A DNA stretch of 64,000 bases, taken from an uncultured Eubacteriales bacterium (GTDB taxonomy: Bacteria > Bacillota > Clostridia > Lachnospirales > JAISER01). Each line of letters begins with the position of its first letter. Position 1 is the stretch's first letter. The stretch is taken from the NCBI GenBank assembly GCA_964500895.1, contig CAZCQP010000003.1, forward strand, positions 35,044 through 99,043, given 5' to 3'. The notes below the pieces were generated by a model. That model saw nothing but the letters and a program-made list of their open reading frames with translations. It searched no databases and was not told where the DNA came from. Shown one piece after another: positions 12,480 through 63,948 of the stretch. The position numbers and the translations under genes were made by a program.

Positions 12480-12513
12480 AAAGATGCAAACTTCCCTTTT
12501 GGTTGGTGGCGCA

Positions 12514-41867: not shown

Positions 41868-41900
41868 TTCATAGAAACCCATTTGTCTTCATATACATTG
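41868..41900 (+). promoter_or_regulatory. SigmaE-like (mother-cell) promoter candidate for spoIIID
   Basis: tcATAg - 16 nt - CATATACATT, compared with the B. subtilis sigmaE pattern ATA-N16-18-CATACA-T. It lies ~35 nt upstream of the spoIIID RBS. Confidence 0.4.
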
Positions 41901-41933
41901 TAAAAATGAAATGTGTTAAGGAGGGGCAATTTC

Positions 41934-42048
41934 TTGAAAACTTATATTGAAGAAAGAGCCGTGGAAGTGGCAAATTTTATTATTAAAAACGATGCAACCG
42001 TCCGTGAGACAGCCAAAAAATTTGGCATTAGCAAATCTACTGTACATA
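41934..42048 (+). pseudogene. spoIIID: spoIIID, 5' part of a split gene (38 codons with the HTH; TTG start)
   Basis: LKTYIEERAVEVANFIIKNDATVRETAKKFGISKSTVH after RBS AAGGAGGGG. It then reads MDVI-stop (42060..42062) instead of the conserved KDVTERL. Confidence 0.85.
42044..42048. other. attL core of element 2 (ACATA, repeated at 63729..63733)
   Basis: This is the only sequence shared at the two spoIIID break points, and it is in the same codon phase. Confidence 0.7.
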
Positions 42049-42282
42049 TGGATGTCATATAAAAGAACGTTTCTTAGGTGTGAGGTATTTAAGCAAATGA
42101 TGGTGTGGGCGTTGCACAAAAAAAAATGGTGTTTTTTACGACCATATTTTATTGTAACAACCCAATTTAATAAATAAAACATTTTTGTTTTTGGTTTGTT
42201 TTTTTTAATAAATTTTTGGTTTGGGGTGTAAAAAAAAAATTGGGTTTTGTTTTACCAAATTTTTTTAGTGGAACGCCCACTT

Positions 42283-42450
42283 TTAAGTAAGAACGCCTTT
42301 TTGCTTTTCTTCTGTGTTTATACTGCGCTCGACAGACTCGGCAAGCCTTGTCCGTACCAGTTCTGCGCAAATTTTTATCAGCTCGTCAACCACCTGATGC
42401 ACCGGGTTCGGGTTATGAAAGGTTATGTGCAGGTGTTGCGGCTTTTTCAA
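42283..42450 (-). CDS. Small element-end protein (55 aa, TTG start), candidate directionality factor or regulator
   Basis: Hand translation: LKKPQHLHITFHNPNPVHQVVDELIKICAELVRTRLAESVERSINTEEKQKGVLT after AAAGGGGG. Same position, orientation and pattern as 424..624. Confidence 0.4.
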   Translation of the reverse strand: MKKPQHLHITFHNPNPVHQVVDELIKICAELVRTRLAESVERSINTEEKQKGVLT

Positions 42451-42519
42451 GCAAGCACCCCCTTTTTGCTTTACACCATTCTATGTCCTTAAACCCGTAT
42501 AAATGAAAAACAAAAAATG

Positions 42520-43752
42520 TTATAATTCTTCTTGGCCACGTTTGGCCATTTTAAAGTGATACATCAATTTATCTGCTTGCTCCAACAGTTCATCCACATT
42601 AAATGGCGTATCTTGTGCCACCTCCACAATGCCGTAGCTGATGGATGGCTGGTACGGCAGCTTTTCTTGGTGCTGTAAGCGCATAATTTCTACATTTGCC
42701 TGTTCTATCTTTTCTAAAGCCACATACTTCGGGCAGTTTGGAAGCAGCACAACAAATTCGTCCCCGCCCAAACGGGAAATGATATCGTTTTTTCTGAATG
42801 CATGGACTAAAATTTGAACAATCCATTGTAAATACCCATCCCCAGCAGCATGTCCAAACGTGTCATTCACCACTTTAAGCTTATCTACATCTACAAAACA
42901 CAAAGAAAAGCTTTGTTGGCTGGATAAAAGTTCGGCTATTTTTTCAAGGCAATACCTTCTGTTGTACACGGACGTCAGTGAATCAAAGTAGGCAATACTC
43001 TCCAGGCGCACTTTGCTCATGGTGGTCTCTAATAAATCGTGTTCCAGTGCCCGGGCCCGGCGCTCTGTTTCCAGGGTTTTGCTCATGCTTATGCCGTAGG
43101 ACAGGGTGATGTAGTACAAGCAAGCCAAAATAATAGGTGTTAGCAAATTAAGCAGTGTCAGTTCCACATAGGCGATGTTGTAGCCGTGGGTACCTGAAAA
43201 TATAAGCAAATAGATAAATAACAAAAAACCCAAAGAGGCGAAATAAACTTCATGCACTTTAGCCTGTGCAAATACGGCCAATTCGCTGAAGGTAACAAAT
43301 TTTTCAATGCGGAATAAAAACATAAAAATGTCCAAAAGCAAAAAGCTAATGGCTAGGCTTAGGTTGTACATGGTATCATTTCCAGAAATTTGGTTAATGG
43401 GTTGCAGGGTGACTAATGCAAAGCTGGATAAGATGATATTCCGAAGCGCTACAATGTTAAACATAAAAGTGCTGGCAACATAAATGATGCGTCTAACCGA
43501 AAGATGGTAAAAAAATAAAAACTCTAAAGAAATGGTGACGAAACCAGCCATATAAACAAAATAAATGTGAAAGCCTAAAGCGGAAAACAACAAATAAATA
43601 GCCGTATTCATTAAAGACATGAGTATTTTGGCTATAGGCTTTAAACGGACTGATGATAGGGCGTTTTCAATGTATGTAAAACCCACATAGTTATAAAACA
43701 CAAAAGAAATGCCACAAAAGAAACGTGCAAACCAAAACCAGCTCATTTCCAT
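42520..43752 (-). CDS. Membrane-anchored GGDEF diguanylate cyclase
   Basis: About 7 hydrophobic helices, then a GGDEF domain (RLGGDEFVVLL). Confidence 0.85.
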   Translation of the reverse strand: MEMSWFWFARFFCGISFVFYNYVGFTYIENALSSVRLKPIAKILMSLMNTAIYLLFSALGFHIYFVYMAGFVTISLEFLFFYHLSVRRIIYVASTFMFNIVALRNIILSSFALVTLQPINQISGNDTMYNLSLAISFLLLDIFMFLFRIEKFVTFSELAVFAQAKVHEVYFASLGFLLFIYLLIFSGTHGYNIAYVELTLLNLLTPIILACLYYITLSYGISMSKTLETERRARALEHDLLETTMSKVRLESIAYFDSLTSVYNRRYCLEKIAELLSSQQSFSLCFVDVDKLKVVNDTFGHAAGDGYLQWIVQILVHAFRKNDIISRLGGDEFVVLLPNCPKYVALEKIEQANVEIMRLQHQEKLPYQPSISYGIVEVAQDTPFNVDELLEQADKLMYHFKMAKRGQEEL

Positions 43753-43944
43753 GGCACCGGCCCCCTGTCTTTTCGGCGTGTTTAAGTATCAGTTTCTGTA
43801 TTATACTTCCACATATTGTAAGCAGTCAAGAAAACTTTTTTCAACGTTTCTCATGACAGTTTTCTTAATGCAATAGACATGCATGGCAAAATATTGTATG
43901 ATGTTTTTGCTTAACCTATTCAAAATGATGCAGAGGGATAACTG

Positions 43945-44868
43945 ATGGTAAACATACTCATGGCCACCTATAATGGTGAAAAATATTTAAAGGCGCAGCT
44001 GGATTCTCTTTTAAGCCAAACATTTGATGCATGGCAGTTGTTTGCCTGCGACGATGGCTCCAGTGACCACACATACGCCATATTACAGGATTATGCCAGC
44101 CGGGACGGGCGCATTCACATCAGTTGCAATGCCCAAAACACCGGAGGCGCTAAATATAACTTTTTTGGGCTAATGCAAAGACATAAGTCCGGCTATGTCA
44201 TGCTGTGTGACCAGGACGATGTATGGCTGCCTGAGAAAATTGAACGAACATTGCAAAAAATGCATGAAATGGAGGCGCAATTTAGCAGTGATACCCCCAT
44301 TCTTGTGCACACGGATTTAAAAGTGACAGATGGGACCCTTCATATTTTGTCCCATTCTTATGAGCACTACACCAAAGCCAATTTTGACAATACGGCTTTG
44401 TGCCATTTACTGACGGAAAACATTGCCGTGGGTTGTACAGTGATGTATAACCAGGCATTGGCGGCTTTTGTTGGTGAAATGCCTTCTTTTTTCATTATGC
44501 ATGATTTTTGGATGGCACAAACAGCGGCCATCTTTGGAAAAGTGGGGCATGTGGATGCCCCCACCATTTTATACCGGCAGCACGCCAATAACAGCAATGG
44601 GGCAAAGAACTTCCGCAATCTGTTTGCTGTGATACGGCTTGCACTTAACATTGATTTTCTTAAAACAAACCTTTCCAACACCTATTTGCAGGCAAATAGT
44701 TTGCTTCAAGCATACGAAGGCCGGTTGCCGGAAGCTGAAAAAGCCCTCTTGTTGGCTTATTGCAGCATTCCTTCATTACGTAAATGGAACCGCTGGCTAA
44801 TGCTGATTCGTCTGAAAACCTTAAAGCATAGCTTCCTTCGGAAGGTTGGCCACTTTTTGTTGGTGTAA
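43945..44868 (+). CDS. Family 2 glycosyltransferase (rhamnosyltransferase-like)
   Basis: ILMATYNGEKYLKAQLDSLLSQT...CDDGSSD...DQDD motifs. Confidence 0.8.
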   Translation: MVNILMATYNGEKYLKAQLDSLLSQTFDAWQLFACDDGSSDHTYAILQDYASRDGRIHISCNAQNTGGAKYNFFGLMQRHKSGYVMLCDQDDVWLPEKIERTLQKMHEMEAQFSSDTPILVHTDLKVTDGTLHILSHSYEHYTKANFDNTALCHLLTENIAVGCTVMYNQALAAFVGEMPSFFIMHDFWMAQTAAIFGKVGHVDAPTILYRQHANNSNGAKNFRNLFAVIRLALNIDFLKTNLSNTYLQANSLLQAYEGRLPEAEKALLLAYCSIPSLRKWNRWLMLIRLKTLKHSFLRKVGHFLLV

Positions 44869-44993
44869 CGCATATTCTGCGCTTGGCTTGTAACAAATGT
44901 TGGACAAGGTAGAACAATTGCTGTAAAATAGGTTATTATAAAAAAGCAAAGGTTATTTTGGCTTTTTACTTGTATAGACATGGAGGAATACAT

Positions 44994-45872
44994 ATGAAAG
45001 GTATTATTTTAGCCGGTGGCGCAGGAACACGATTATTTCCTTCTACATTAGCTGTATCAAAGCAAATGTTGACCATTTACGACAAACCTATGATTTATTA
45101 TCCTTTATCTACCTTGATGCTTTCCGGCATTCGGGAGGTACTTATTATCTCTACCCCTAGAGATTTGCCTATGTTTGAGGCCTTGTTAGGAGACGGCAAA
45201 AAGCTGGGCATGTCTTTTCAGTATATTGTGCAAGAAGCGCCCAAAGGGCTGGCGGAAGCTTTTATTTTGGGAGAAGACTTTATCGGAAAAGACAATGTCA
45301 CCCTGGTATTGGGGGATAATATTTTTTATGGTTACGGTTTTTCGGCAAGGTTGATGCAAACCGTGCAGCAAGTGGAAACAAACGAGGGCGCTGTTATTTT
45401 TGGGTACCATGTGTCTAACCCCAGTGATTTTGGTGTGGTGGACTTTGACCGGGAAGGTAACGTATTGTCTATTGAAGAGAAGCCCAAAGCGCCAAAATCT
45501 AACTATGCAGTGCCCGGTCTTTATTTTTATGACAATCAGGTGGTGGACATTGCAAAAGGGGTAACCCCTTCTGCTCGAGGTGAACTGGAAATAACGGCAG
45601 TGAACAATGCTTATTTAGCCATGACTAAGCTAAAAGTAGAGCTGTTTGGCCGTGGGATGGCTTGGCTGGACACTGGGACACACCGGGCAATGCTGGAAGC
45701 CGCCAACTTTATTGAAACGGTGCAAACCAGGCAAGGGCTTTATGTGGCATGTATTGAAGAAATTGCGTACCGGCAGGGGTTTATCAATGCCTCCGCACTT
45801 TACGGGCTGGGTGAAGCGCTTAAATATACCGAATACGGGCAATATATTATGGAGTTGGCAAACGGTGTGTAA
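44994..45872 (+). CDS. rfbA: Glucose-1-phosphate thymidylyltransferase
   Basis: [48 protein letters not shown] lies before the ATG at 44994. Confidence 0.93.
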
Positions 45873-45914
45873 GGCAGCAATAATTAAAAAATATTTTTTT
45901 ATGTTTCTTGCTTT

Positions 45915-45945
45915 TTAACCTCACCAGTTATGCTGGTGAGGTTAA
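45915..45945 (+). terminator. Rho-independent terminator after rfbA
   Basis: TTAACCTCACCAG / CTGGTGAGGTTAA 13-bp stem. Confidence 0.6.
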
Positions 45946-46235
45946 AAAGGTTAATAGCATCAGCGCTGACTAATAATAAATGCACTTTGTATAAAAAGCT
46001 ACTGCTTCTACTTCAATGTAATTAGTGCAAGATTTGATGTTTTACGTTCCTTATATAGGGGCGGAACCAGCATAACTGCCAACTATAGTCAACAAAGAAG
46101 CAGACCGTAAGAACAGTTTGAAAATTGGTGAATGCTGTCTTATATTTGAATAAAATGAGTTGTCAACGGTGGCAACTTCCGAAGGATCTTCCAACGTGTA
46201 GAAATGTTTCTTAATTGTATTTGGTTTGAACGCTT

Positions 46236-47022
46236 TTAGAACCTGTTTGCTATCTATCAAACCACAATGGCTTGATGTATAATTATATGAAAAAATTATA
46301 CATAGGAGCGAAAAATGAGAGCTGCATATCCAAGCGACGTAACCCGTGCGCAGTTTGAAGGCATACGTCATTATTTTGATACTAACAAGAAAAAATCAAC
46401 ATTTACGACATATTCTGTGCAGTTCTTTATGTGTTGCGGGAAGGTTGTAGGTGGCGTTCTCTACCACATGACTATCCCAAATGGAAGAATTGTTATAAAC
46501 ATTATAGGATATGAGATGCAAAAGGGCCTGATGGTAAAAGCCATCTTGGACAAAGCCCTTGAAAACCGCTCCCATTTGGTCTGTTACATTTGCGGTAGTC
46601 CGTCTATGGCGTGAGGAAGCTCCAGGGTATCAACCCCGATATGAATTTTAACCCCGGACACTTTTTCCCACCGTCATAGCCTTTTTCTTCGGCGGTGAAA
46701 GCGCTCTTTACACTCTTGGAATCAGTAATACTCATGGTGGTTTTGGGTTTCTGCCTTTGACAATGCGTTATGACATAACTAATTATGAAACCTTCTCCCC
46801 AAACCTTGCCAACATTATTAAAGTGCTTTGTGATGGTGATTTTACGGGCAAACCATTTGCTGATGCTATTATGAACTAATCAAAGCTGAAGTGGAAATAG
46901 CAAAATGCAAAGAACTTCACACATTTTTAGTTATCCCTATGCTTTGAGTAGTCGAGAGAACTTTCATTGCTTTTAAAGATGGTAAACAGGTTCTTGCAAC
47001 GTTATTGAATACAGGGTTCTTA
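46236..47022 (+). mobile_element. Decayed IS5-like insertion sequence (frameshifted, internally deleted transposase; central ~225 bp inverted)
   Basis: + strand: MRAAYPSDVTRAQFEGIR, LPHDYPKWKNCYKHYRIW. - strand at 46545..46772: TTMSITDSKSVKSAFTAEEKGYDGGKK, VDTLELPHA. + strand again: VLCDGDFTGKPFADAI, NAKNFTHF, SLLLK..RY-stop. Right terminus TTATTGAATACAGGGTTCTTA. Confidence 0.7.
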
Positions 47023-47252
47023 TAATATTCTGTAAAAGCGCTCAACACCTCAAAGCTCTATAAAGACAACGATTTTCAAAAATTATGCATGACTGCCTGC
47101 TTAATTACCATAGTATACTGGTACTTCTAGCTGGCGGGAGTGAAAGTGATTCCGTGGTTTTCAAGTAAATGTTGAATTTTTTAGCAAAATATAGTACAAT
47201 AAGAAATATGTTTAAATCACAGCATTTAATTTGACTTGTTTTAATTTTTATA

Positions 47253-48047
47253 TTGAAGGAAGGTTATACTACGAAAACTTATGTTGATACGTTTTTAAGA
47301 TTCAGAATATTACTTTACGACTTAGTTTTGAGAGATATTAAAGTAAAGTATCGCCGTTCTGTTTTGGGTGTTGTGTGGAGTGTTTTGAATCCTTTACTGA
47401 TGATGCTTGTTATGACAGCGGTCTTTTCGGCCGTTTTTAAAGTTAGTATACCTAACTTTCAGGGGTATTTTCTTACAGGTTTTGTCCTTTTTAATTTTTA
47501 TGGTGAGGCAACAAGTGGCGCAATGAGTTCAGTATTGGGATCGGCATCCCTTATAAAAAAGGTTTACATTCCTAAATATCTTTTTGCTGTAGAAAAAGTT
47601 TTGTTTGCTTTTATTAACTTTGCATTCGCACTTGCTGCTGTGGCTATCGTTTTGATTGCAACTAAGGTTCCTATTAAAATTACGGTTTTACTTGCTCCGA
47701 TTCCGGTTTTATATACTTTTATTTTTGCATTGGGAATTGGTCTTATACTCGCAGTCTGTGCTGTGTTTTTTAGAGATACATTACACTTATATACTGTTTT
47801 ATTGACAGCACTCAATTATTTTACCCCTATTTTTTATCCTGAAGATATTATACCGGAGAAGATACAGTGGTTATATTATTGCAATCCTCTGGTTCATTTT
47901 GTCAAATATTTTCGAAGTTGCGTGATTCATGGAGAAATTCCTGATTTGAAGACAAATTTGCTTTGTGCGGCATTTGCGTTTGGAGCGCTGATATTGGGCT
48001 TAATACTTTTTAAGAAAAAGCAAGACAGCTTTGTTCTTTATGTGTGA
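47253..48047 (+). CDS. Polysaccharide ABC exporter permease (Wzm/RgpC/TagG type)
   Basis: ABC-2 type permease. N-terminus LVLRDIKVKYRRSVLGVVWSVLNPLLMM. Confidence 0.85.
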   Translation: MKEGYTTKTYVDTFLRFRILLYDLVLRDIKVKYRRSVLGVVWSVLNPLLMMLVMTAVFSAVFKVSIPNFQGYFLTGFVLFNFYGEATSGAMSSVLGSASLIKKVYIPKYLFAVEKVLFAFINFAFALAAVAIVLIATKVPIKITVLLAPIPVLYTFIFALGIGLILAVCAVFFRDTLHLYTVLLTALNYFTPIFYPEDIIPEKIQWLYYCNPLVHFVKYFRSCVIHGEIPDLKTNLLCAAFAFGALILGLILFKKKQDSFVLYV

Positions 48048-48060
48048 GAAGGTGTTACGA

Positions 48061-48792
48061 ATGAACATTATAGAAGTACAGAACGTTTCAATGGTTTTTA
48101 ATCTTCTAAGAGAGCCAGTGTTTTCATTGAAAGAATATGTCATCAGCTTTTTAAAGGGACGTGTTCAGGTGGAAGAGTTTGTTGCGCTGTCTAATGTTAG
48201 TTTCGAAATAAAAAAGGGTGAAGTCTTTGGTATTGTGGGTGATAATGGAAGCGGAAAATCAACACTATTAAAGCTAATTGCAGGCGTTTATAAAGCGACA
48301 GATGGTAAGGTGAGTGTCTATGGTAAGGTTGCGCCATTAATTGAGCTTGGCGCAGGCTTTGACATGGACCTAACTGCCAGAGAAAATATTTTTTTAAATG
48401 GACTAATTCTTGGGTATACTAGAGAGTATATAATTGGGAAGTTTGATGAAATTGTTGCTTTTTCAGAAATAGGAGATTTTATTGATGTGCCTTTGAAAAA
48501 TTATTCATCGGGAATGGTTTCGCGTATTGCCTTTTCCATTGCCACTTGTACACAGCCGGATATATTAATTGCAGATGAGATTCTGTCGGTTGGAGATTTT
48601 GAATTTCAGGCTAAGTGCGAAAATCGAATTATGAACATGATGGCTAAAGGTACGACCGTAATTTTTGTTTCCCATTCCATTGATCAGGTTAAACGAATCT
48701 GTAAGAGAGCTGCCTGGCTAGATCATGGGAAGATTGTGACAATCGGTGATGTTGATTTTGTTTGTGATGCATATATTAATAAAATATATTAA
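48061..48792 (+). CDS. Polysaccharide ABC exporter ATP-binding protein (Wzt/RgpD/TagH type, no C-terminal glycan-binding extension)
   Basis: Walker A GDNGSGKST, signature YSSGM, Walker B ILIADE. Confidence 0.85.
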   Translation: MNIIEVQNVSMVFNLLREPVFSLKEYVISFLKGRVQVEEFVALSNVSFEIKKGEVFGIVGDNGSGKSTLLKLIAGVYKATDGKVSVYGKVAPLIELGAGFDMDLTARENIFLNGLILGYTREYIIGKFDEIVAFSEIGDFIDVPLKNYSSGMVSRIAFSIATCTQPDILIADEILSVGDFEFQAKCENRIMNMMAKGTTVIFVSHSIDQVKRICKRAAWLDHGKIVTIGDVDFVCDAYINKIY

Positions 48793-48810
48793 TTAAAGAG
48801 AGGTGTTTTT

Positions 48811-49644
48811 GTGACTAAAGTTTTGGTTACGGGTGCAGGCGGCTATATAGGAAGGCATATCATTTCCAAATTGCTCGACAAAGGTGCGGATGTTTCAGCA
48901 GTGGATATTGCCTTTAGTGAAATTGATTCAAGGATTAAGACAGTCATTGAGGCGGATATTTTCGATGGAGATCCACAAATATTTAAACGTTTGGGAAATC
49001 CCAACGTTTGTCTACATATGGCTTGGAAGGACGGATTTGTGCATCATTCGGATGAGCATATGTTAAATCTTTCAAAACATTATGAATTTATTAATAACAT
49101 GCTTAAAGGAGGTCTTTCACATATTGCGGTGATGGGCAGTATGCACGAGGTAGGGTATCATGAGGGTGCTATTGATGAGAACACGCCATGTAATCCTATC
49201 AGTATGTATGGTATTTCAAAGGATTCGTTAAGAAGGGCTTTGATAAGAAAGCTAGACGGCACAGATGTAGTTTGGCAGTGGATTAGGGCTTTTTATATTT
49301 ACGGTGATGACGAAAAAAATAATTCCATTTTTACAAAGCTTGTTCAAGCAGAAAAAGAAGGTAAATTAGAATTTCCTTTTACAACAGGTAAGAATAAATA
49401 TGATTTTATAAGTGTGACTGAATTGGCCGATCAAATCTCGGCTTGTGTTTTGCAAGATAAAATTACAGGAATTATCAACTGTTGTAGTGGAAGGCCAGTG
49501 TCGCTAGCTGAGCAAGTTGAGAAATTTATAGCTCAAAAGGGACTTAAAATTAGGCTTAAATATGGGGCGTTTCCAGATAGAACTTATGATTCTCCTGTTG
49601 TGTTTGGAGATTCGTTAAAGATCACCAAAATTATGAGAGGTTGA
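48811..49644 (+). CDS. NAD-dependent epimerase/dehydratase family protein (GTG start)
   Basis: VLVTGAGGYIGRH Rossmann motif and YGISK catalytic motif. Confidence 0.75.
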   Translation: MTKVLVTGAGGYIGRHIISKLLDKGADVSAVDIAFSEIDSRIKTVIEADIFDGDPQIFKRLGNPNVCLHMAWKDGFVHHSDEHMLNLSKHYEFINNMLKGGLSHIAVMGSMHEVGYHEGAIDENTPCNPISMYGISKDSLRRALIRKLDGTDVVWQWIRAFYIYGDDEKNNSIFTKLVQAEKEGKLEFPFTTGKNKYDFISVTELADQISACVLQDKITGIINCCSGRPVSLAEQVEKFIAQKGLKIRLKYGAFPDRTYDSPVVFGDSLKITKIMRG

Positions 49645-49648
49645 TTTT

Positions 49649-51436: not shown

Positions 51437-51438
51437 CT

Positions 51439-53364: not shown

Positions 53365-53392
53365 TTATGTAAAATTGTTCGGAGGTTTTGAT

Positions 53393-55324: not shown

Positions 55325-55361
55325 CTTAAATAATAGATAATGGGATTAATGAGGTGTTGGT

Positions 55362-56762
55362 GTGGTCTTCTCGTCGACTATTTTTGTTTTTTTATTTCTG
55401 CCTGTTGTTTTAGGTGGTTATTACCTTATACGACATGAGTTTAGAAATACCTTCTTGCTTGTGTCTTCACTTCTATTTTATGCCTGGGGTGAACCTAAAT
55501 TTGTATTTATAATGATTGCTTCCATACTCGTTAATTATTGTATGGGAATTGCAATTGATGTAAGCCGTGATTGGCGCATTAGTATAAAACGATTTATTTT
55601 AATAGTTGCTATTTTATTAAATTTAGGATTACTGTTTTATTTTAAATATTTTGACTTTGCAGTAGATATTTTTAACGGCCTTTTTAAATCAAATATATCA
55701 CTAAGACATATTGCGCTTCCTATTGGTATAAGCTTTTTTACATTCCAAGGAATGTCTTACATTTTGGATTTATATATGGGCAAGGTGGAGGTGCAAAATA
55801 ACCCTTTAAATATTGCACTATATATAGCCTTGTTTCCTCAGCTAATTGCGGGGCCTATTGTTCGATATATAGATGTAAATGAGCAAATTGAAAGCAGAAC
55901 GTGTACTAGTGGTAAGTTTAATGCAGGTATTAAAAGGTTTATTATGGGCCTTGCCAAAAAGATTATATTGGCTAATTCTGTCGCAACAATTGCAGATAGC
56001 GCTTTTTCAACTCAGGTTTCTGAGTTATCAAGTATTATGTCTTGGCTAGGTATTATTTGCTATACATTTCAGATTTATTTTGATTTTTGCGGCTATTCGG
56101 ATATGGCAATAGGGCTTGGACAAATATTTGGCTTTGAATTTTTAGAAAATTTTAATTATCCATATACTTCTAAAAATATCACGGAGTTTTGGAGGAGATG
56201 GCACATTTCTCTATCATCTTGGTTTAGGGATTATGTTTACATACCTCTTGGCGGTAATAGGACAGGAAATGTGTATTTTAATCTTTTAACTGTTTTTTTT
56301 GTTACAGGATTATGGCATGGTGCATCTTGGAATTTTATTATTTGGGGCTTATGGCACGGTTTTTTTCTCATTGTAGAAAGAATATTGCGCCGAAAAGATG
56401 CTGATTTTAAGACGCTTCATTTGCTTAAAAGGGTTTATACTCTATTAGTTGTGATAATTGGTTGGGTAATGTTTAGAGCGCCAGATATCAATTATGGATT
56501 ATTATATATAAAATCCATGTTTAACTATTCATTTAATTCATTGCAAAATGACACAGCTTGCCTTTATTTTAAAGATAACTTTATAATCCTTATGATATGT
56601 GCTGTATTATGTACCCCATTAATAAAAATTTTAAAAGATAAATTTTCGGATTACAAGGCCTGTACGTTATTTGAGATTATTATTTATATGGTACTGTTTA
56701 TTATAAGCATATCTTATATGGTAAACAGTTCATATGATCCATTTATTTATTTTAATTTTTAA
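55362..56762 (+). CDS. MBOAT-family O-acyltransferase (AlgI/DltB-like, GTG start)
   Basis: Multi-pass protein with FWRRWHISLSSWFRDYVYIPLGGNR and the conserved His in WHGASWNF. Confidence 0.85.
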   Translation: MVFSSTIFVFLFLPVVLGGYYLIRHEFRNTFLLVSSLLFYAWGEPKFVFIMIASILVNYCMGIAIDVSRDWRISIKRFILIVAILLNLGLLFYFKYFDFAVDIFNGLFKSNISLRHIALPIGISFFTFQGMSYILDLYMGKVEVQNNPLNIALYIALFPQLIAGPIVRYIDVNEQIESRTCTSGKFNAGIKRFIMGLAKKIILANSVATIADSAFSTQVSELSSIMSWLGIICYTFQIYFDFCGYSDMAIGLGQIFGFEFLENFNYPYTSKNITEFWRRWHISLSSWFRDYVYIPLGGNRTGNVYFNLLTVFFVTGLWHGASWNFIIWGLWHGFFLIVERILRRKDADFKTLHLLKRVYTLLVVIIGWVMFRAPDINYGLLYIKSMFNYSFNSLQNDTACLYFKDNFIILMICAVLCTPLIKILKDKFSDYKACTLFEIIIYMVLFIISISYMVNSSYDPFIYFNF

Positions 56763-56774
56763 GGAGGTGTTTTA

Positions 56775-58280
56775 ATGAAGAGTAAAGGCTCTGATATTAT
56801 ATTGATAGGATTTTTTATAATAAGTATTTTTGTACTTTCAATATTATCATTAAAAACAACAGGTAAAGAAATATTAAACAAGCTAGAAACTACATCAATT
56901 CAGACTATCCAAAATGATTTGCAAGATATAGGGGAAATTTACAGAAATGGTTTTTTTCGTCGAAAAGATTTTATAAATGCTTATGGTGCTGTTCAGCTTA
57001 TGCTTAATAAAAGAATGATTGGAGACAAGGAATTTTATAAGGACAATAATGGATTTATGCAAGCATTTTATTCAAATGATGATTGGAGTAATTTTGAAGA
57101 CGAAGTAATTAATTTAAAGAAAATTACTGATCAAAAAGGAGTTCCTTTGCTATATGTGCAAATTCCCTCTAGGGTTATTCCAGGGTATACTAAACTCCCA
57201 GCAGGATTTGTTAATAATAAAAATATTGCTATGGATAAATTACTATCAGGTCTTTCTCTTGCTGATATAAATGTTTTGGATTACAGATCGTATGTGAACA
57301 AAGATTCGGTTGATTCAAGTAATGTTTTTTTAAAAACAGATTTTCATTTGACAACTGAGGCCGAACTTGATGTTCTAAAAAAACTAGTGCATGAATTAGA
57401 GTCTAAATATGGATTAACATTTGATAATAAGGATGTAATAATGGATATGCAAAATTATCATTTGGATACAAGAAAATTTTTAGGTAATTATGCGTTTTCA
57501 TCAGGGAAATATTTTGCAGGTTTAGATTATTTTAATATGTATATTCCCAAATTCGACACTAGCTTTCTGCTTACAGATGAATATGGGAATAAAATAAAGG
57601 ATGGAAGTTTTCAAGATGTCTTAATGAATGGTTATCAATATACTACGCAATCTCAAAATGAATCTGAATTAATATATTGGATTACCAATTATATGCAGTA
57701 TACGAGACCATGTTATCGTTTTGAAAACCGGATGGTAGATAAAAATAATATTCTCATTGCCATGGATAGTATGGGATTTAGAACCGCTGCGTATCTTTCT
57801 TTGATGTGTAATGGTTTAACTGTAGTTGATCCTAGATTTGAAGGAAATAAGGGTTATTTAATTAGAGAAATAAATAACAATGACTATGATGTGGTCATTT
57901 TATTACAGGCTAAGTCACTTGTAGATAGTCCATTAGTTCCCAAAAAGCTAGGGGCAGAAATTATTTATGATGATACATTAGGTATCGTCAAACGGAATGA
58001 AAAGTACACATTTCGTATTTCTGTTAGGAATACGGGTGATCGCATATGGAATGCAAAGGATATGATTAAACTCTGCATATTCCAAGATGGTGTAGATTAT
58101 GGCTATAGAATTTCTTTGCCAGAAGGTGTTGAGGTGAAACCTGGAGAAGACTATACGTTTGAATTGAATAATTTCGTTGCCCCCCCCACTAATAGCACCT
58201 ATTTGGAATATCAAATGGTTGAGGAAGGTATTGACTGGTTTGGCGAAAAGAAACGGGTTGATATTCAAGTTAATGATTAG
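56775..58280 (+). CDS. AlgJ/AlgX-like (DHHW-type) acyl-transfer partner protein with C-terminal Ig/NBR1-like domain
   Basis: N-terminal anchor and a TDFHLT motif matching the D-x-H pattern of AlgJ-type proteins. The beta-rich C-terminal ~110 aa follow. Directly downstream of the MBOAT gene. Confidence 0.6.
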   Translation: MKSKGSDIILIGFFIISIFVLSILSLKTTGKEILNKLETTSIQTIQNDLQDIGEIYRNGFFRRKDFINAYGAVQLMLNKRMIGDKEFYKDNNGFMQAFYSNDDWSNFEDEVINLKKITDQKGVPLLYVQIPSRVIPGYTKLPAGFVNNKNIAMDKLLSGLSLADINVLDYRSYVNKDSVDSSNVFLKTDFHLTTEAELDVLKKLVHELESKYGLTFDNKDVIMDMQNYHLDTRKFLGNYAFSSGKYFAGLDYFNMYIPKFDTSFLLTDEYGNKIKDGSFQDVLMNGYQYTTQSQNESELIYWITNYMQYTRPCYRFENRMVDKNNILIAMDSMGFRTAAYLSLMCNGLTVVDPRFEGNKGYLIREINNNDYDVVILLQAKSLVDSPLVPKKLGAEIIYDDTLGIVKRNEKYTFRISVRNTGDRIWNAKDMIKLCIFQDGVDYGYRISLPEGVEVKPGEDYTFELNNFVAPPTNSTYLEYQMVEEGIDWFGEKKRVDIQVND

Positions 58281-58363
58281 CAGGGTTTAAAGAATTGCTA
58301 TTTATACTTTCTTTTATATTAAAATTATGATAAAATTATAAAAAACAAATTGGAGTTGAGACG

Positions 58364-58930
58364 GTGTCAAAATTTAAAATTACACCCACAAAAATTAAGG
58401 ATTTGATTGTTATAGAATCGACTGTTTTTGGCGATAACCGTGGTTATTTTATGGAAACTTATAATCAGAGAGCGTACTCAGAAATTGGGCTAAACATGTG
58501 TTTTGTGCAGGACAACCAGTCGAAGTCAAAACAAGGCGTCTTACGGGGGCTTCATTTTCAAAAGGAGAAGCCCCAGGGTAAACTTGTGCGTGTAATTTCT
58601 GGTAAGGTTTATGATGTTGCTCTTGATATTCGTCCAAATAGTCCTACTTTTGGACAATGGGAGGGTATATTGCTTTCAGCTGAAAATAAGCTGCAGTTTT
58701 ATGTTCCGGAAGGATTTGCACATGGTTTCTTAGTTGTAAGCGAAACCGCTGAGTTTGTCTACAAATGTACGCAGCTTTACGACCCAACTGATGAAGGTGG
58801 GATTATGTTTAACGACCCTGATCTAAATATCGATTGGCAAAAATATTTTAATGGGGACCCTATACTATCAGATAAAGATAAGAAAAACATGAGTTTAAAA
58901 GAATATGTTAGTGCCTTAAAAAAGGTATAA
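58364..58930 (+). CDS. rfbC: dTDP-4-dehydrorhamnose 3,5-epimerase (GTG start)
   Basis: FGDNRGYFMETYN, VQDNQSKS..GVLRGLHFQ, VPEGFAHGF. Confidence 0.92.
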   Translation: MSKFKITPTKIKDLIVIESTVFGDNRGYFMETYNQRAYSEIGLNMCFVQDNQSKSKQGVLRGLHFQKEKPQGKLVRVISGKVYDVALDIRPNSPTFGQWEGILLSAENKLQFYVPEGFAHGFLVVSETAEFVYKCTQLYDPTDEGGIMFNDPDLNIDWQKYFNGDPILSDKDKKNMSLKEYVSALKKV

Positions 58931-59340
58931 TTTTAGCCGGTGGTTCAGGAACAAGACTTTAAGGTTTTGAATATTTATGATCTTCTTGACGTGATACTAT
59001 TAGAAGATTTGCTGGATGATTGTCCATAGTTGGGACGTGATGCCACAAAAAGATGCAAGGTACTATGCGGACTATCGAATGCAATTTATTTTAGTTAGTG
59101 GTGTTATTGATATAGCAATGGAAGCCTGTGCCTTGAAATAAAATGCTTTACAGATATCGTTTTAGTACTATATACAGAAGAACAGAATCTCTTAAAAGGC
59201 TACTGGATTTGGATATCACGTTACTAACTGGTAAGATTATGATTATGGTGTGATTGAGTTTGATAAAGACTGTAACGTGCTTTGAACAGGGGAAGCCATA
59301 AGGTTCCTTGAAGTGAGGTATGGTAAATCAGGCAAAGCTT
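58922..59340 (+). pseudogene. rfbA: Decayed second copy of glucose-1-phosphate thymidylyltransferase
   Basis: [13 protein letters not shown]-stop at 58922..58963 with no start codon. Further on, GFGYHVTN..DYGVIEFDKDCNVL-stop matches the middle of RmlA. Multiple stops and deletions. Confidence 0.75.
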
Positions 59341-59458
59341 TTGCTCATGTTTTTGAGAAATTGCATGTTATAGTCCATGGATGACAAAAGAGATGTTTTT
59401 AACATATGCTAGCATGTTGTGCAACGTTGAGTTTGCAGTTTGAATAAAGGAGTATTGC

Positions 59459-60292
59459 ATGAAAATTCTAATAACGGGTTCGAAGGGGCAATTAGGACAG
59501 GAATTACTGTCATTAACTAACGAAACGATTATTGATACTGATATAGAACTTAATATCGTGGACCTAGATACATTATATAGATTTGTGAAGGACAAGCATT
59601 TTGATGCTATTATTAATTGTGCTGCGTATACAAATGTTGATGGCTGTGAAGATAATATTGATGATGCTTACCATATAAATGCTGTAGGTGCTAGAAACCT
59701 TGCTTTAATTGCAGAACAAAAAAAGGCAAAACTGTTTCATATTTCTACTGATTACGTTTTTGATGGATTGTCGAAGGAACCGTATAGGGAGTATGATGTC
59801 CCAAATCCACAAAGTGTGTATGGTAAATCTAAGCTCCTGGGAGAACATTTTGTTCGTGATTTTTGCGGCAAATATTTTATAATTCGCACTGCGTGGCTGT
59901 ACTCAAAGATAAATAAAAATTTTGTTCAAACAATGATTAGTTTGGGACAAAGCAAAAATGAAATTAATGTCGTAAATGATCAAAGGGGAAATCCTACAAA
60001 TGTAAAGGATTTGGCAAACCATATTCTAAGCCTTTTAAGAACTGATTATTATGGAATATATCATATAACCGGCAAGGGTGAGTGTAGTTGGTATGACTTT
60101 GCCAAACGGATAATGGAGTTAAGTGGTAGTAAATGTAGGGTTAATCCCATTACTTCGAAAGAATATCCCCAAAAGGCAAAACGTCCAAAGTATTCATCAC
60201 TTGATAATTTAGCATTAAGAGCAAGTATTGGAGATCATATGCGAGATTGGGATGTAGCACTTGAAGACTATTTTAAGGAGATGGTAAAATGA
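59459..60292 (+). CDS. rfbD: dTDP-4-dehydrorhamnose reductase
   Basis: MKILITGSKGQLG, INCAAYTNVD, STDYVFDG, YGKSKLLGE. Confidence 0.92.
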   Translation: MKILITGSKGQLGQELLSLTNETIIDTDIELNIVDLDTLYRFVKDKHFDAIINCAAYTNVDGCEDNIDDAYHINAVGARNLALIAEQKKAKLFHISTDYVFDGLSKEPYREYDVPNPQSVYGKSKLLGEHFVRDFCGKYFIIRTAWLYSKINKNFVQTMISLGQSKNEINVVNDQRGNPTNVKDLANHILSLLRTDYYGIYHITGKGECSWYDFAKRIMELSGSKCRVNPITSKEYPQKAKRPKYSSLDNLALRASIGDHMRDWDVALEDYFKEMVK

Positions 60293-61305
60293 AAACTTAT
60301 CTGGTAACAGGAGGCGCTGGGTTCATAGGCAGCAATTTTATATTGTATATGCTTGAAAAATATCCAGAAATAAAAATTATTAACGTAGATTGTTTAACCT
60401 ATGCTGGCAATATTGACAATCTGAAGACAGTGGAAAATGATCCTCGCTATTGTTTTGTAAAGGCAGATATTTGTGACAGTGAAGCCATAAAAAATATTTT
60501 TAATGAAGAAATCAATTATGTGGTTAACTTTGCGGCTGAAAGTCATGTTGACCGCTCCATAGAAACACCCGGTGTTTTTGCAAATACTAACATTATCGGT
60601 ACACTTAATCTACTTAACCATGCGAAACATGCTTGGCAAATAAGAGATGATACGTATAAAACAGGCGTAAAATTTCTTCAGGTTTCAACAGATGAGGTTT
60701 ATGGTTCATTGGGTTCAACAGGATTGTTTACGGAAGATACACCTCTTGATCCCCATAGCCCATATTCAGCAAGTAAGGCATCTGCTGATATGTTTGTAAA
60801 GGCATATTTTGACACCTACAAAATGCCTGTTAACATTACTCGATGTAGTAACAACTATGGTGAGTTTCAGTTTCCTGAAAAATTGATTCCTCTTGTAATT
60901 AATAACCTTTTACAGTATAGAAAGGTACCTATTTACGGGGATGGAAAACAGGTGCGGGATTGGCTTTATGTTAAGGATCACTGCAAGGCAATTGATATGG
61001 TTATAAATGGTGGGGTGCTTGGAGAGGTTTATAATGTGGGTGGCTCTAATGAAAGGGAAAATATCATAATTGTTAAAACTATTATTAAATATCTTAATCA
61101 AAACTACGACAGTAGAATATCTGAGGATTTAATCGGCTATGTAACAGACAGAAAGGGTCATGATCGTCGATATGGTATCGATGCAACTAAAATTAAAAAC
61201 GAACTTGGCTGGACACCAGATACTATGTTTGATGAAGGCATTATCAATACCATCAAATGGTATTTGGATAATAGAGACTGGGTTAAGAAGTTATTGAAAG
61301 AATAA
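60289..61305 (+). CDS. rfbB: dTDP-glucose 4,6-dehydratase
   Basis: LVTGGAGFIGSNF, AAESHVDRS, STDEVYG, YSASKASAD. Confidence 0.93.
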   Translation: MKTYLVTGGAGFIGSNFILYMLEKYPEIKIINVDCLTYAGNIDNLKTVENDPRYCFVKADICDSEAIKNIFNEEINYVVNFAAESHVDRSIETPGVFANTNIIGTLNLLNHAKHAWQIRDDTYKTGVKFLQVSTDEVYGSLGSTGLFTEDTPLDPHSPYSASKASADMFVKAYFDTYKMPVNITRCSNNYGEFQFPEKLIPLVINNLLQYRKVPIYGDGKQVRDWLYVKDHCKAIDMVINGGVLGEVYNVGGSNERENIIIVKTIIKYLNQNYDSRISEDLIGYVTDRKGHDRRYGIDATKIKNELGWTPDTMFDEGIINTIKWYLDNRDWVKKLLKE

Positions 61306-61340
61306 ATGTAATAAAAGAGATAGGGGTACAGAAAGTTTCA

Positions 61341-61420
61341 AAAGATTGGAGTAGAAAACCTTTGAGTTGCCGTAAATGATTGTGGCAATCAATCAAAAAG
61401 GAGCAATATCCGATGGCTAA
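61341..61420 (+). repeat. Left arm of an ~80 bp imperfect inverted repeat
   Basis: Aligns with the reverse complement of 62076..62155. Identical blocks are GGAGTAGAAAACC, AAATGATTGTG and ATATCCGATGGCTAA, with roughly four-fifths identity overall by eye. Confidence 0.85.
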
Positions 61421-62075
61421 GAAACTGAATAACACAGATAGCTATTGCAGCGAGCGACAAGATTACCAAGTAGGCCTTTTGGACAATGTTTAACCAAGTT
61501 TGGTTGGTAGCGGGTACGGGCACTACCGAGGCCTGGCTGACCATTTGGCAGGATAGTATCCAAAGAGGTTTACAAAGGTAATAAAGGTACTCTTGGAAGG
61601 GTGTGGAGGAACTCTCACGCCTCTAGAGATTTCAGGAATATTATCCCTACCAATTGCTGCCATTAAGAATATCTACCCATAAAATGGAATAGGTGTATTC
61701 GATTTCGGAAGCACGTTCATCAAGTTCACTGGCCATACTGCTTGCCTGGCTGCAGGGATACCCCGGCTTACTAACGCTTCTTGAATAACCCTGTACCAAG
61801 GCCGTTTCACTACGCTTAAGGTTGCTGATAAAGACCGGAGCATATCCGATCTTACGTACCTTCGGTACCATGGGTTATACAGTACCCGAACGAGTATTGC
61901 ACCTACAGGGATGATATCCGAGTCGGTAGCTTATGACCTGAGTTGTACTCCAATTTATCGGAAAAAGTTCTGCTTTTATCAACTGTTCTCTTAGCCACTT
62001 GAGTATGGAAAGCATCTGATCATGATTGCTTAGCACTGCAGTAATAATTCTGTCAATTTGTGTTGTTTTATTTTT

Positions 62076-62155
62076 TAGCCATCGGATATAGCTCCCTTTT
62101 GATGATTGTCACAATCATTTTATGGAGCACCGATGGTTTTCTACTCCCATCCTTT
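62076..62155 (-). repeat. Right arm of the inverted repeat (overlaps the recombinase leader)
   Basis: See the left arm. The arms bracket a 655 bp core (61421..62075) with no convincing ORF. Confidence 0.85.
62102..62118. promoter_or_regulatory. Perfect 8+1+8 palindrome ATGATTGT-C-ACAATCAT (operator-like), overlapping a weak TTGATG-N16-TATGGA promoter-like pattern facing the recombinase gene
   Basis: Read directly, ~80 nt upstream of the recombinase ATG. The copy in the left arm (61377..61394) is degenerate. Confidence 0.35.
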
Positions 62156-62198
62156 TTGCAATTTATGCTACTCTATCAAAGAAAACAAGGGTGATGCT

Positions 62199-63734
62199 AT
62201 GCGAACCGTTGCGTATTGCCGTGTTTCTACAAGTAAAGATGAACAATTAGACAGTTTAGCAGCACAGCAAAGGTTTTTTACGGAGTATTCAGAAAAGAAC
62301 AATTATCATTTAGTCCAAATATATGCCGATGAGGGTAAGAGTGGAACGAAGCTTAAAAACCGCACACAGCTTCTGAAGCTTTTGGCAGATGCTAAAAAGC
62401 AAATGTTTGATATTGTGCTTATCAAAGACGTTTCGCGGCTTGCCAGAAACACTGTTGACTTTTTGACGAGCATACGTGCGCTCAAGGCATTAGGGGTTAA
62501 GGTTGTATTTGTGAATTACGACCAAACCGATTCAGACAGTTCGGAATTTATGCTTACATTGCTTTCAGCAATTGCGCAGGAGGAATCAGCAAACACATCA
62601 AAGCGTGTGAAGTTTGGAAAGAAGATGAACGCCGAAAAAGGGCGTGTTCCTAACATTGTATACGGATACAACAAGCAAGTTGGGGACTACTTTAGCCTAG
62701 AAATTAACGAGCCCGAAGCACAGGTTGTTAGGGACATCTTTGATATGTATGTTAATGAAAATTTTGGAGCAAATAAAATAGCCATGACATTAAACGCTAA
62801 AGGGTATAAAACAAAACGTGGCTGTAAGTGGACGCAAAATGCCATTGCAAGGATTTTGGCCAACCAAATTTACATAGGCCGGGTTATCAATGGCAAGGAA
62901 GAAGTGGAGGATTTTCTAACAGGCAAGCGAAAAGAGAAAAATCAGCATGAATGGATTATAACCGAAAATGAAGCGCTGCGCATTATACCAGATGAGCTGT
63001 TTGATAAGGCTCAAAAAACATTAGCGCAAAGAACCCAAACTTTTAATATAACAGGGGAACGTAATTCAGACAAGCATGTTTTCAGCAAGCTTATCAAATG
63101 TTCTTGTTGTCATTCGTCATTCAGGCAATCCGTTAGAACATATAAAAATACATACACCAAGTGGGTATGCACAGGGCGCAATGCCAAAGGAGCTGGGTTT
63201 TGTATCAATAAAACTGTTATTGATGAAGCTCAACTTTTAGAAGCAATTAAAGCATACTTTGTTGAGCTGTTAATGCAGAAACCCAGCTTTATTAAAAGTA
63301 AAATTAATCAACTCAATAGACTTTATCAATCGAAAGATGAAAACGTGCAATCGGAAAAGACCCTCATGCGTGAAAGAAACCGACTAAATAAACTGAAACA
63401 AAAACAAATTGAGATGTATGAAGCCGACATCATCAGCCTTGATGCATTAAAAGAACGCACACAAGAACTGGATGCACACCTTGTAAGCGTGGATGAGCAG
63501 CTGCATATGATTCAAATGAATGTGAGCAAAAGTGATATGTTTAAAAATGCATTAATGGAAACCTTTTGCGACATAGAGAATGGGTTGAAAGCCGAGCATT
63601 TCACCAATGCCATGCTAAACAGGGTGATAGAGAAAATAACCGTAGACGAAAACGGCAAAATTGATGTGTACCTACGTTTATTAAGTGACATCGGTATGGA
63701 AAATAGCGTTCTATTAAGCAACGACCAAACATAA
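62199..63734 (+). CDS. Large serine recombinase (element 2, SpoIVCA/CisA-like)
   Basis: VAYCRVSTSKDEQ catalytic Ser, IKDVSRLARN, recombinase domain, Cys cluster (CSCCHS...C...C) and a long C-terminal coiled coil. The start is taken at MRTVAY after AAGGG. The stop TAA overlaps the attR core. Confidence 0.9.
   Translation: MRTVAYCRVSTSKDEQLDSLAAQQRFFTEYSEKNNYHLVQIYADEGKSGTKLKNRTQLLKLLADAKKQMFDIVLIKDVSRLARNTVDFLTSIRALKALGVKVVFVNYDQTDSDSSEFMLTLLSAIAQEESANTSKRVKFGKKMNAEKGRVPNIVYGYNKQVGDYFSLEINEPEAQVVRDIFDMYVNENFGANKIAMTLNAKGYKTKRGCKWTQNAIARILANQIYIGRVINGKEEVEDFLTGKRKEKNQHEWIITENEALRIIPDELFDKAQKTLAQRTQTFNITGERNSDKHVFSKLIKCSCCHSSFRQSVRTYKNTYTKWVCTGRNAKGAGFCINKTVIDEAQLLEAIKAYFVELLMQKPSFIKSKINQLNRLYQSKDENVQSEKTLMRERNRLNKLKQKQIEMYEADIISLDALKERTQELDAHLVSVDEQLHMIQMNVSKSDMFKNALMETFCDIENGLKAEHFTNAMLNRVIEKITVDENGKIDVYLRLLSDIGMENSVLLSNDQT
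63729..63733. other. attR core of element 2 (ACATA)
   Basis: Matches 42044..42048. Confidence 0.7.
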
Positions 63735-63897
63735 AGATGTTACAGAACGATTGATTAAAATTAACCCCAAATTGGCAGGCGAAGCACGCAGAGTGCTGGA
63801 AGTGAACAAATCCCAGCGCCATATTCGTGGAGGGCTGGCTACGAAAGAAAAATACATGACGCTGCCGGGAAGCATTGGGTTGAAAAAACTGAAATAG
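63733..63897 (+). pseudogene. spoIIID: spoIIID, 3' part of the split gene (54 codons)
   Basis: KDVTERLIKINPKLAGEARRVLEVNKSQRHIRGGLATKEKY... is the conserved SpoIIID C-terminal region. It is in phase with 41934..42047 across ACATA, giving a 92-codon ORF. Confidence 0.85.
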
Positions 63898-63909
63898 CCA
63901 GTAAACACC

Positions 63910-63948
63910 ACACCCCCTTGACTTATATTTGTCTTGGGGGTGTTTTTC
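63910..63948 (+). terminator. Rho-independent terminator after spoIIID
   Basis: ACACCCCC / GGGGGTGT stem followed by TTTTT. Confidence 0.65.

Follow-up and report, generated by a model that had tools for sequence, protein, structure and literature searches.

In a 64,000-nucleotide stretch of DNA from an uncultured Eubacteriales bacterium (contig CAZCQP010000003.1; hereafter the window), the sporulation gene spoIIID is split in two by a 21,685-bp intervening element that carries a large serine recombinase (LSR) at one end. An initial annotation, made from the letters of the sequence, had described this arrangement as a skin-like element in an unusual host gene; the split gene is a real feature of the window, and every statement of that annotation about the sequence was confirmed. 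The element was probably inserted by this recombinase, whose family is found at spoIIID, and it is probably excised in the mother cell under the timing of sigmaE, which would rebuild the gene. Elements that intervene in sporulation genes are a known class, in which spoIIID is barely documented as a host. New here are the breadth of the LSR family that targets spoIIID, its free phage attachment site (attP), an unrecognised small partner protein and the mother-cell-type promoter of that protein.

Deletion of the element restores an uninterrupted spoIIID gene

The left-hand piece of spoIIID is a 42-codon open reading frame (ORF) that starts at a TTG codon (41934) behind the strong ribosome-binding site (RBS) AAGGAGG (41918..41924). 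Codons 1-38 encode SpoIIID, as the initial annotation had stated, and the ORF ends ...TVRETAKKFGISKSTVH-MDVI*, with a stop codon at 42060..42062. The break at codon 38 falls inside the recognition helix of the helix-turn-helix, between ..SKSTVH and KD... The remainder of the gene (KDVTERLIKINP...RHIRGGLATKEKY...) resumes at 63733, within the TAA stop codon of the LSR gene (63732..63734), and runs to its own stop at 63895..63897. Both break points share the sequence ACATA (42044..42048 and 63729..63733) in identical codon phase, and deletion of 42049..63733 (21,685 bp, with 42048 fused to 63734) yields the uninterrupted 92-codon spoIIID that had been predicted.

The product of the rejoined gene scores 133.6 bits against the Pfam SpoIIID profile (PF12116), for which the cut-off is 27, and the match spans positions 1-79 of the 82 in the profile. 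Intact SpoIIID orthologues of 92-93 aa are 85-88% identical to this predicted product; their sequence (...GISKSTVHKDVTERL...) is continuous across the junction, and at the gene level, too, they align colinearly with the predicted join. The search for uninterrupted copies that the initial annotation had proposed found the exact 27-mer TCTACTGTACATAAAGATGTTACAGAA in one metagenome contig, inside an unbroken gene. Compared with intact orthologues, both halves in the window give pN values of 0.06-0.10 and pS values of 0.64-0.98, synonymous change being saturated, a pattern which indicates that both are under purifying selection.

The promoter, RBS and terminator of the split gene are all intact. 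The terminator that had been noted behind the 3' fragment is a hairpin with a fold energy of -21.4 kcal/mol (z = -4.2). The putative sigmaE promoter ahead of the 5' fragment is a good match to the mother-cell consensus, with a -35 ATA and a -10 CATA, that is known for Bacillus subtilis and Clostridioides difficile (PMC3789822), and a comparable motif is also found upstream of an intact spoIIID (locus L081). The adjacent sporulation gene yqfD is intact and passes its equivalog cut-off.

A widespread recombinase family adjoins spoIIID

The LSR consists of Resolvase, Recombinase and zinc-ribbon domains, with the catalytic serine (Ser10) in the motif AYCRVST; residues R8, S10, R80 and R83 are invariant in an alignment of 30 sequences. 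Exact look-ups of the protein, in forms of 511 and 533 aa, returned no record. A protein search returned more than 120 clusters of related LSRs at 52-66% identity, nearly all of 510-530 residues, and the few that bear a source name come from Clostridia. In an alignment-based scan of one genome per species at least 597 relatives were found, and the best 80 were kept as loci L001-L080. A 3' fragment of spoIIID follows the recombinase gene in 76 of these 80 loci, abutting it directly in 73 and lying 1.9-2.3 kb downstream in three; the other four include contigs that end 0.2-0.7 kb from the recombinase. All of the fragments are open to the normal stop codon and have 45-56 codons. By the gene that its members adjoin, this LSR family is dedicated to spoIIID, and since 76 independent assemblies show this junction architecture, the junction in the window is not a product of chance.

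Carriers are mostly Lachnospiraceae and Oscillospiraceae, with hosts that include Blautia, Schaedlerella, Acetatifactor, Flavonifractor, Pseudoflavonifractor, Acutalibacter and Ruminococcus; further hosts are Christensenellaceae, Peptococcaceae, Ethanoligenens and a metagenome-assembled genome (MAG) of the Defluviitaleaceae. Carriers available in culture include Schaedlerella arabinosiphila DSM 106076 (L049), Blautia ammoniilytica (L015), Flavonifractor sp. An82 (L053), Pseudoflavonifractor phocaeensis An569 (L027), Solibaculum intestinale (L031) and Acetanaerobacterium elongatum. Both halves of spoIIID are present in ten loci, whose elements measure just 4-10 kb. The identity of the recombinases tracks that of the host SpoIIID proteins poorly (r = 0.18), which suggests that the elements move between lineages: the host SpoIIID fragment closest to that of the window, in L063, is 91% identical to it, yet the two recombinases are 52% identical.

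Since the stop codon of the LSR gene is contributed by spoIIID sequence beyond the crossover, the reading frame would be 17 codons longer in the excised circle. The ORF has 511 codons when the element is integrated and would have 528 after excision, making the C-terminus of the predicted protein dependent on the state of the element. In a phage contig with a sibling element (L084) the LSR ORF likewise continues across attP.

Attachment sites, free attP and empty attB

The initial annotation had joined the two ends of the element into a symmetric attP. This site can be sharpened to GCGTTCT-N17-CA-N17-AGAACGT, centred on the CA at 42045-46 and 63730-31. The attR sequences of 76 loci and the window (77 in total) align without gaps and share the element-side arm gaaaCCGTTCTaattnGTAACnaccata followed by CA, and the 11 attL sequences (ten loci and the window) supply the other arm, CA-tatggttGTAACaaaatAGAACGG. 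When the P and P' arms of the family are joined they form a near-perfect inverted repeat, CCGTTCT-N17-CA-N17-AGAACGG, and on account of this symmetry we assign CA as the crossover dinucleotide. The motif GTNAC is found at +8..12 in P' and B' alike, while GAACG lies at +19..23 in P' vs +14..18 in B', an inward shift of 5 bp. In serine integrases, the outer zinc-ribbon motif is 5 bp closer to the centre in attB than in attP (Rutherford et al. 2013, PMC3783163); here only the B' arm follows this rule, the B arm being degenerate.

A scan of a viral collection with the pattern CGTTCT-N8-AC-N7-CA-N7-GT-N8-AGAACG gave five matches, each at the 3' end of a recombinase gene of the family, on five viral contigs that comprise at least three distinct sequences and in which attP is uninterrupted. 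The looser pattern CGTTCT-N17-CA-N17-AGAACG is absent from the 80 integrated loci (L001-L080). The 62-kb viral contig L084 encodes a DNA polymerase, a helicase/exonuclease, an NAD ligase, an endolysin and tail fibres; it also carries the small gene described below and a recombinase 51% identical to that of the window, followed by aCCGTTCT-N17-CA-N17-AGAACGGt without spoIIID sequence. The sibling elements on viral contigs are phages. The structural reading of the initial annotation, namely an LSR-bounded element with a precise deletion and an attP, is thus backed by the empty sites in intact spoIIID genes, by the phage attP and by the conservation of the family.

Some 200 bp inside the left end of the element (42271..42295), the outer att motif recurs twice, as GGAACGCC and AGAACGCC, at a distance of 20 bp. 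These additional copies are located where the small gene ends, after an A/T-rich low-complexity stretch (42100..42260), and could be accessory binding sites or chance occurrences.

A small protein is a likely directionality factor

The LSR and one small protein are encoded in all complete elements, and no other gene is common to them. The family of the small protein was defined by six-frame hidden Markov model (HMM) searches of the fetched loci; its members have about 55-60 residues and the motif KLNYRFHNPN..TADYILK..EAN..KVE.AI. The HMM detects a copy in 66 of the 80 genome loci, in each of the 11 complete elements (that of the window among them) and in the phage contigs. Of the 14 loci without a match, most offer less than 2 kb of sequence before the recombinase. 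Small protein and LSR co-vary (r = 0.66), vs r = 0.18-0.20 when either is compared with the host SpoIIID fragment. Most loci have the small gene immediately before the recombinase. That of the window is found at the other end of the element and on the opposite strand, an orientation seen also in L063 and four other loci; because of this placement, attP alone would separate the small gene and the recombinase in the circle.

A single-sequence AlphaFold2 model of the 55-aa protein of the window has an extended N-terminal tail and one long helix (mean pLDDT 79.8). No match was found in Pfam, NCBIfam, PHROGs or the PDB sequences, a word-indexed protein search returned only the protein itself, and phmmer gave four weak matches among 1.8 billion representatives. 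Known directionality factors are small and mutually unrelated, for example Skr with 64 aa (PMC6957869) and CD1234 with 72 aa (PMC5025042), and the size and position of the present protein match those of Skr, SprB and CD1234. Its linkage to the LSR, its size and its position make it a likely recombination directionality factor.

A conserved CATA-type promoter precedes the small gene

In 46 of 67 loci the small gene is preceded by the pattern [AC]TA[TA][TA]-N13-15-CATA, vs 2.2 expected by chance, typically as ggACTATTT-N13-CATAGTTAT, and the same CATA-type promoter stands before the small gene in the phage contigs L165-L167. This conserved promoter points to expression of the small gene in the mother cell. 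The sequence GGACAA is also found upstream of the gene in 31 of the 67 loci (2.7 expected), usually nine bases after CATA. The consensus site of B. subtilis SpoIIID, TAGGACAAGC (PMC11180830), has GGACAA at its core. Lying over the predicted start point of transcription, the box suggests that SpoIIID, once present, acts here as a repressor.

The initial annotation had argued that the recombinase would have to be wired differently from spoIVCA. Independence from SpoIIID is logically sound and fits the promoter of the small gene; the regulated part is more likely to be the small protein, which that annotation had not noticed, than the recombinase itself. Scans for sigma70 promoters and terminators around the recombinase and the left end of the element gave nothing above shuffled controls, with the exception of the promoter of a cargo gene for a GGDEF protein (TTGACT-18-TATAAT at 43829..43800), which is sigma70-like and near consensus.

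Transcription from the spoIIID promoter would cross attL and run antisense into the small gene, so that the two promoters are convergent while the element is integrated.

Cargo and other features of the window

The G+C content of the element is about 33-43%, vs about 44-52% in the host DNA immediately upstream. Its cargo (Table 1), a rhamnose-polysaccharide cluster and a diguanylate cyclase, is presumably useful to the growing cell. We rejected a prophage reading of the element, in which the Pfam-matched cargo ORFs of at least 90 aa all fall to polysaccharide, transport or signalling functions.

Table 1. Coordinates of the split spoIIID gene, the attachment sites and the contents of the element in the window.
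Feature	Position	Strand	Basis or remarks
Putative sigmaE-type promoter of spoIIID, TCATAGA-N14-CATATACAT	41869..41898	+	Read from sequence
spoIIID 5' fragment	41934..42062	+	38 SpoIIID codons, 4 element-encoded codons (MDVI) and stop
attL	42024..42070	.	spoIIID B arm, CA 42045-42046, element P' arm ending AGAACGT (42064..42070)
Intervening element	42047..63731	.	21,685 bp, non-phage
Candidate recombination directionality factor, 55 aa, LKKPQHLHITFHNPN...	42283..42450	-	Family HMM, 82.7 bits
Putative mother-cell-type promoter of small gene	42478..42506	-	-10 CATAGAAT (42485..42478), weak -35 TCATTTA (42506..42500)
GGDEF diguanylate cyclase, membrane (cargo)	42520..43752	-	Pfam
Rhamnose-polysaccharide cluster (cargo)	43945..61305	+	Pfam
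GT2 glycosyltransferase	43945-44868	+	Pfam
RmlA	44958-45872	+	Pfam
ABC-2 permease	47253-48047	+	Pfam
ABC ATPase	48031-48792	+	Pfam
Epimerase	48811-49644	+	Pfam
Pyruvyl transferase	49649-51436	+	Pfam
RgpF rhamnan synthesis proteins, two	51439-53364 and 53375-55324	+	Pfam
MBOAT acyltransferase	55362-56762	+	Pfam
AlgX-like partner of MBOAT	56775-58280	+	Pfam match below curated cut-off
RmlC	58364-58930	+	Pfam
RmlD	59459-60292	+	Pfam
RmlB	60289-61305	+	Pfam
100-bp inverted repeats around IS256-like remnant	61340-61439 / 62056-62155	.	79% identical; directly upstream of recombinase gene
LSR, 511 aa	62199..63734	+	PF00239, PF07508 and PF13408, all above cut-offs
attR	63706..63749	.	P arm GCGTTCT (63706..63712), CA 63730-63731, B' arm with GAACG (63745..63749)
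spoIIID 3' fragment	63733..63897	+	Codons 39-92 and stop
Intrinsic terminator of spoIIID	63910..63943	+	Hairpin fold energy

The C-terminus of the pyruvyl transferase (50840..51266) is made up of about ten copies of a 42-bp (14-residue) repeat, ..KDGHIRMLDEAxVA.., predicted to form a coiled coil. Two gaps in the cluster, 45918..47253 and 58930..59459, hold no convincing gene; in the former, which may be debris of an insertion sequence (IS), two overlapping ORFs (46051..46371 on the minus strand and 46315..46614 on the plus strand) have no family match. The region 61340..62155, between rmlB and the recombinase, is probably a decayed IS: the roughly 600 bp between its 100-bp inverted repeats give a weak match to the Pfam family Transposase_mut (IS256/Mutator) at E = 0.002, below the cut-off. 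An invertible promoter switch was also weighed for these repeats, and the decayed IS256-like remnant is the simpler reading. This IS may have pushed the small gene out of the position ahead of the recombinase that it usually occupies. A search with Rfam gave no match at the gathering score anywhere in the window, and noise alone in 61250..62250.

Sibling elements carry anti-phage genes between the small gene and the LSR in L019 (4252..6205), L049 (7872..9801) and L040 (6414..9969). The cargo of L019 is a tested AbiLi/AbiLii pair (AAA_21 and RloB), and that of L049 a look-alike pair recognised by eye from the translations; L040 encodes a Schlafen-like ATPase and an AbiU/AIPR protein.

Elsewhere in the window (10854..13251), a second LSR of 541 aa, 24% identical to that of the spoIIID element, overlaps by 8 nt the start of a 259-aa ORF that corresponds to the C-terminal membrane part of FeoB alone (FeoB_C and Gate); the N-terminal part of FeoB was not found in the window. 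As at spoIIID, a recombinase here abuts the 3' piece of a gene, so that a second element may split feoB.

Discussion

From the anatomy of the element, its att sites, the target specificity of the family, the free attP forms and the empty sites, we infer the timing and cell specificity of excision, the role of the small protein and the feedback by SpoIIID as follows. The element would stay integrated in vegetative cells and in the forespore, and would thus be inherited via the spore. In the mother cell, sigmaE would turn on both the promoter of the broken spoIIID gene and that of the small protein. With this directionality factor present, the recombinase would recombine attL with attR at the central CA, releasing a circle with the attP GCGTTCT-N17-CA-N17-AGAACGT and leaving a 92-codon spoIIID behind its own sigmaE promoter. 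The rebuilt SpoIIID would then be able to move the mother cell into the next stage of its programme and, in the many sibling elements with GGACAA after the -10 of the small gene, would shut the factor off.

Several points weigh against developmental excision, which is itself deduced from DNA sequence. The B arm of attB has little symmetry with B', and no similarity of the small protein to a known directionality factor was detected in Pfam, NCBIfam, PHROGs or the PDB sequences, in which CD1234 was absent and the other known factors were not verifiably present. In the window, the promoter of the small gene keeps the -10 alone, with a poor -35 and no GGACAA box (a GGACA overlaps the -10), and conservation of this promoter across the family partly reflects shared descent and is not independent evidence, because the elements are related. 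Moreover, just 70 nt separate the small gene from the sigma70-driven GGDEF gene upstream of it, an interval in which no terminator was predicted; read-through from the strong GGDEF promoter could make the factor constitutive. The sigma70 scan gave no convincing promoter for the recombinase, and the IS remnant lies just upstream of it. No further SpoIIID-like sequence was found within the 64 kb of the window, and a second copy is possible beyond it.

Some of these points would suit excision that is stochastic or induced by stress, in the manner of an ordinary prophage or genomic island; only element-free cells would then finish sporulation, and the element would be a reversible brake and not a mother-cell switch. 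The family holds real phages with a free attP, the small gene of the window may be co-transcribed with the GGDEF gene, and its mother-cell promoter is weak. Loss of the element before sporulation would, however, purge it from the spore lineage, yet it is kept with intact halves in 76 species-level genomes; a CATA-type promoter stands before the small gene in 46 of 67 loci, and in L165-L167 as well, and the characterised analogues are all mother-cell specific (PMC4191935, PMC5025042, PMC6957869). We therefore regard non-developmental excision as unlikely.

It is less likely still that the insertion is dead, with spoIIID permanently inactivated in a host that is asporogenous or uses another copy. 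Just 64 kb of the genome is visible, and the IS debris inside the element shows that some decay has taken place. Against this, the halves of spoIIID are under selection with promoter, RBS and terminator in place, and the element has kept an intact recombinase, small protein and pair of att arms; the nearby yqfD is intact too. Across 76 species the split state is kept, with no degraded 3' fragment among them. Ruminiclostridium cellulolyticum H10 is a spore former. Its spoIIID is also split, and it is marked 'Y' in both of the unlabelled status columns of a published genome table (Galperin et al. 2022). A chimeric contig, in which assembly joined unrelated sequence inside spoIIID, is very improbable. 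The source is probably metagenome-derived, with MAGs as its nearest relatives, but the two junctions have a common 5-bp core and codon phase, and their P and P' arms are the ones conserved in 76 independent assemblies and in the phage attP sites. Mother-cell excision of a functional element remains the reading that we prefer.

Hosts of intervening elements in the literature are sigK, spsM, spoVFB, spoVR, gerE, kamA and yabG. The sole mention of spoIIID that we found in this literature is one sentence and one row of a supplementary table in Galperin et al. (2022), on a 64.7-kb skin-like element with a 511-aa recombinase (Ccel_3111) in spoIIID of R. cellulolyticum H10. The earlier remark that spoIIID is not a classic host accordingly holds for the literature, with this one listed case, and does not hold for Clostridia genomes, where spoIIID is a very common target. 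The H10 element has the same host gene and the same recombinase length as that of the window; in contrast to the window, its recombinase adjoins the 5' fragment on the opposite strand, and it was listed without analysis of sites, factor, regulation or distribution.

Among the characterised systems, skin(Cd) of C. difficile (CD1231/CD1234) is similar in that excision rebuilds a mother-cell regulator, and CD1234, which has no database relatives, sets both directionality and cell type (PMC5025042); the 55-aa candidate of the window may play a comparable part. The target of skin(Cd) is sigK, whereas the LSR family of the window is dedicated to spoIIID by its junctions. CD1234 needs sigmaE and SpoIIID, so such control would be impossible in a spoIIID element before excision. 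The B. subtilis element skin(Bs) (SpoIVCA, Skr), also in sigK, is defective and has the unit attL-rdf-int-attR, which is the layout of most of the sibling elements; a sigmaE promoter precedes the Skr ORF, and this in turn immediately precedes the integrase gene (PMC6957869). Unlike the element of the window, skin(Bs) has phage-derived rather than polysaccharide cargo and a different target and att sites, and transcription of spoIVCA and skr needs SpoIIID.

In SPbeta (SprA/SprB, spsM) and phi3T (kamA), integrase and factor are at opposite ends, like the LSR and the candidate factor in the window, with attP alone between them in the circle (PMC6957869), and sprB has a mother-cell sigmaE/K promoter (PMC4191935). 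These are active 130-kb phages, however, with an extra stress-inducible promoter and with late, non-regulatory target genes. The gin element in gerE of B. cereus ATCC 10987 (GirC/GirX) resembles that of the window in being non-phage, in combining a serine recombinase with an accessory factor, which in the window is a candidate, and in its host gene, which is very small and encodes a transcription factor of the mother cell (PMC5595907). It differs in having three recombinases, compared with one, and in targeting the last regulator of the cascade, compared with an early gene directly under sigmaE.

The main interest of the element lies in the position of spoIIID in the cascade, in the breadth of the family and in the unrecognised small partner protein. 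The elements studied so far split genes at or after the SpoIIID step, and the two skin elements use SpoIIID itself as the trigger of excision. An element inside spoIIID must be released by sigmaE alone, which would place it one step higher in the mother-cell cascade. Because several carriers are cultured isolates, this idea is directly testable. The system also yields a well-defined attP/attB pair and what may be a new family of serine-integrase directionality factors.

The element is no peculiarity of a single genome, as its recombinase family is widespread among Lachnospiraceae, Oscillospiraceae and related groups. More tentatively, we suggest that spoIIID, whose product is the first transcription factor that the mother cell makes under sigmaE, may be among the most often interrupted sporulation genes in gut and environmental Clostridia, by way of a single LSR family that is shared by temperate phages and by small cargo islands with abortive-infection, polysaccharide or metabolic genes. 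The LSRs would be paired with a new family of factors of about 55 residues under a mother-cell promoter that is independent of SpoIIID and is switched off by SpoIIID, forming a self-limiting timer between the activation of sigmaE and the accumulation of SpoIIID. The analysis further portrays spoIIID of gut spore formers as a safe harbour where phage-defence and cell-surface cargo can lodge; an element at this place could delay or gate all later steps.

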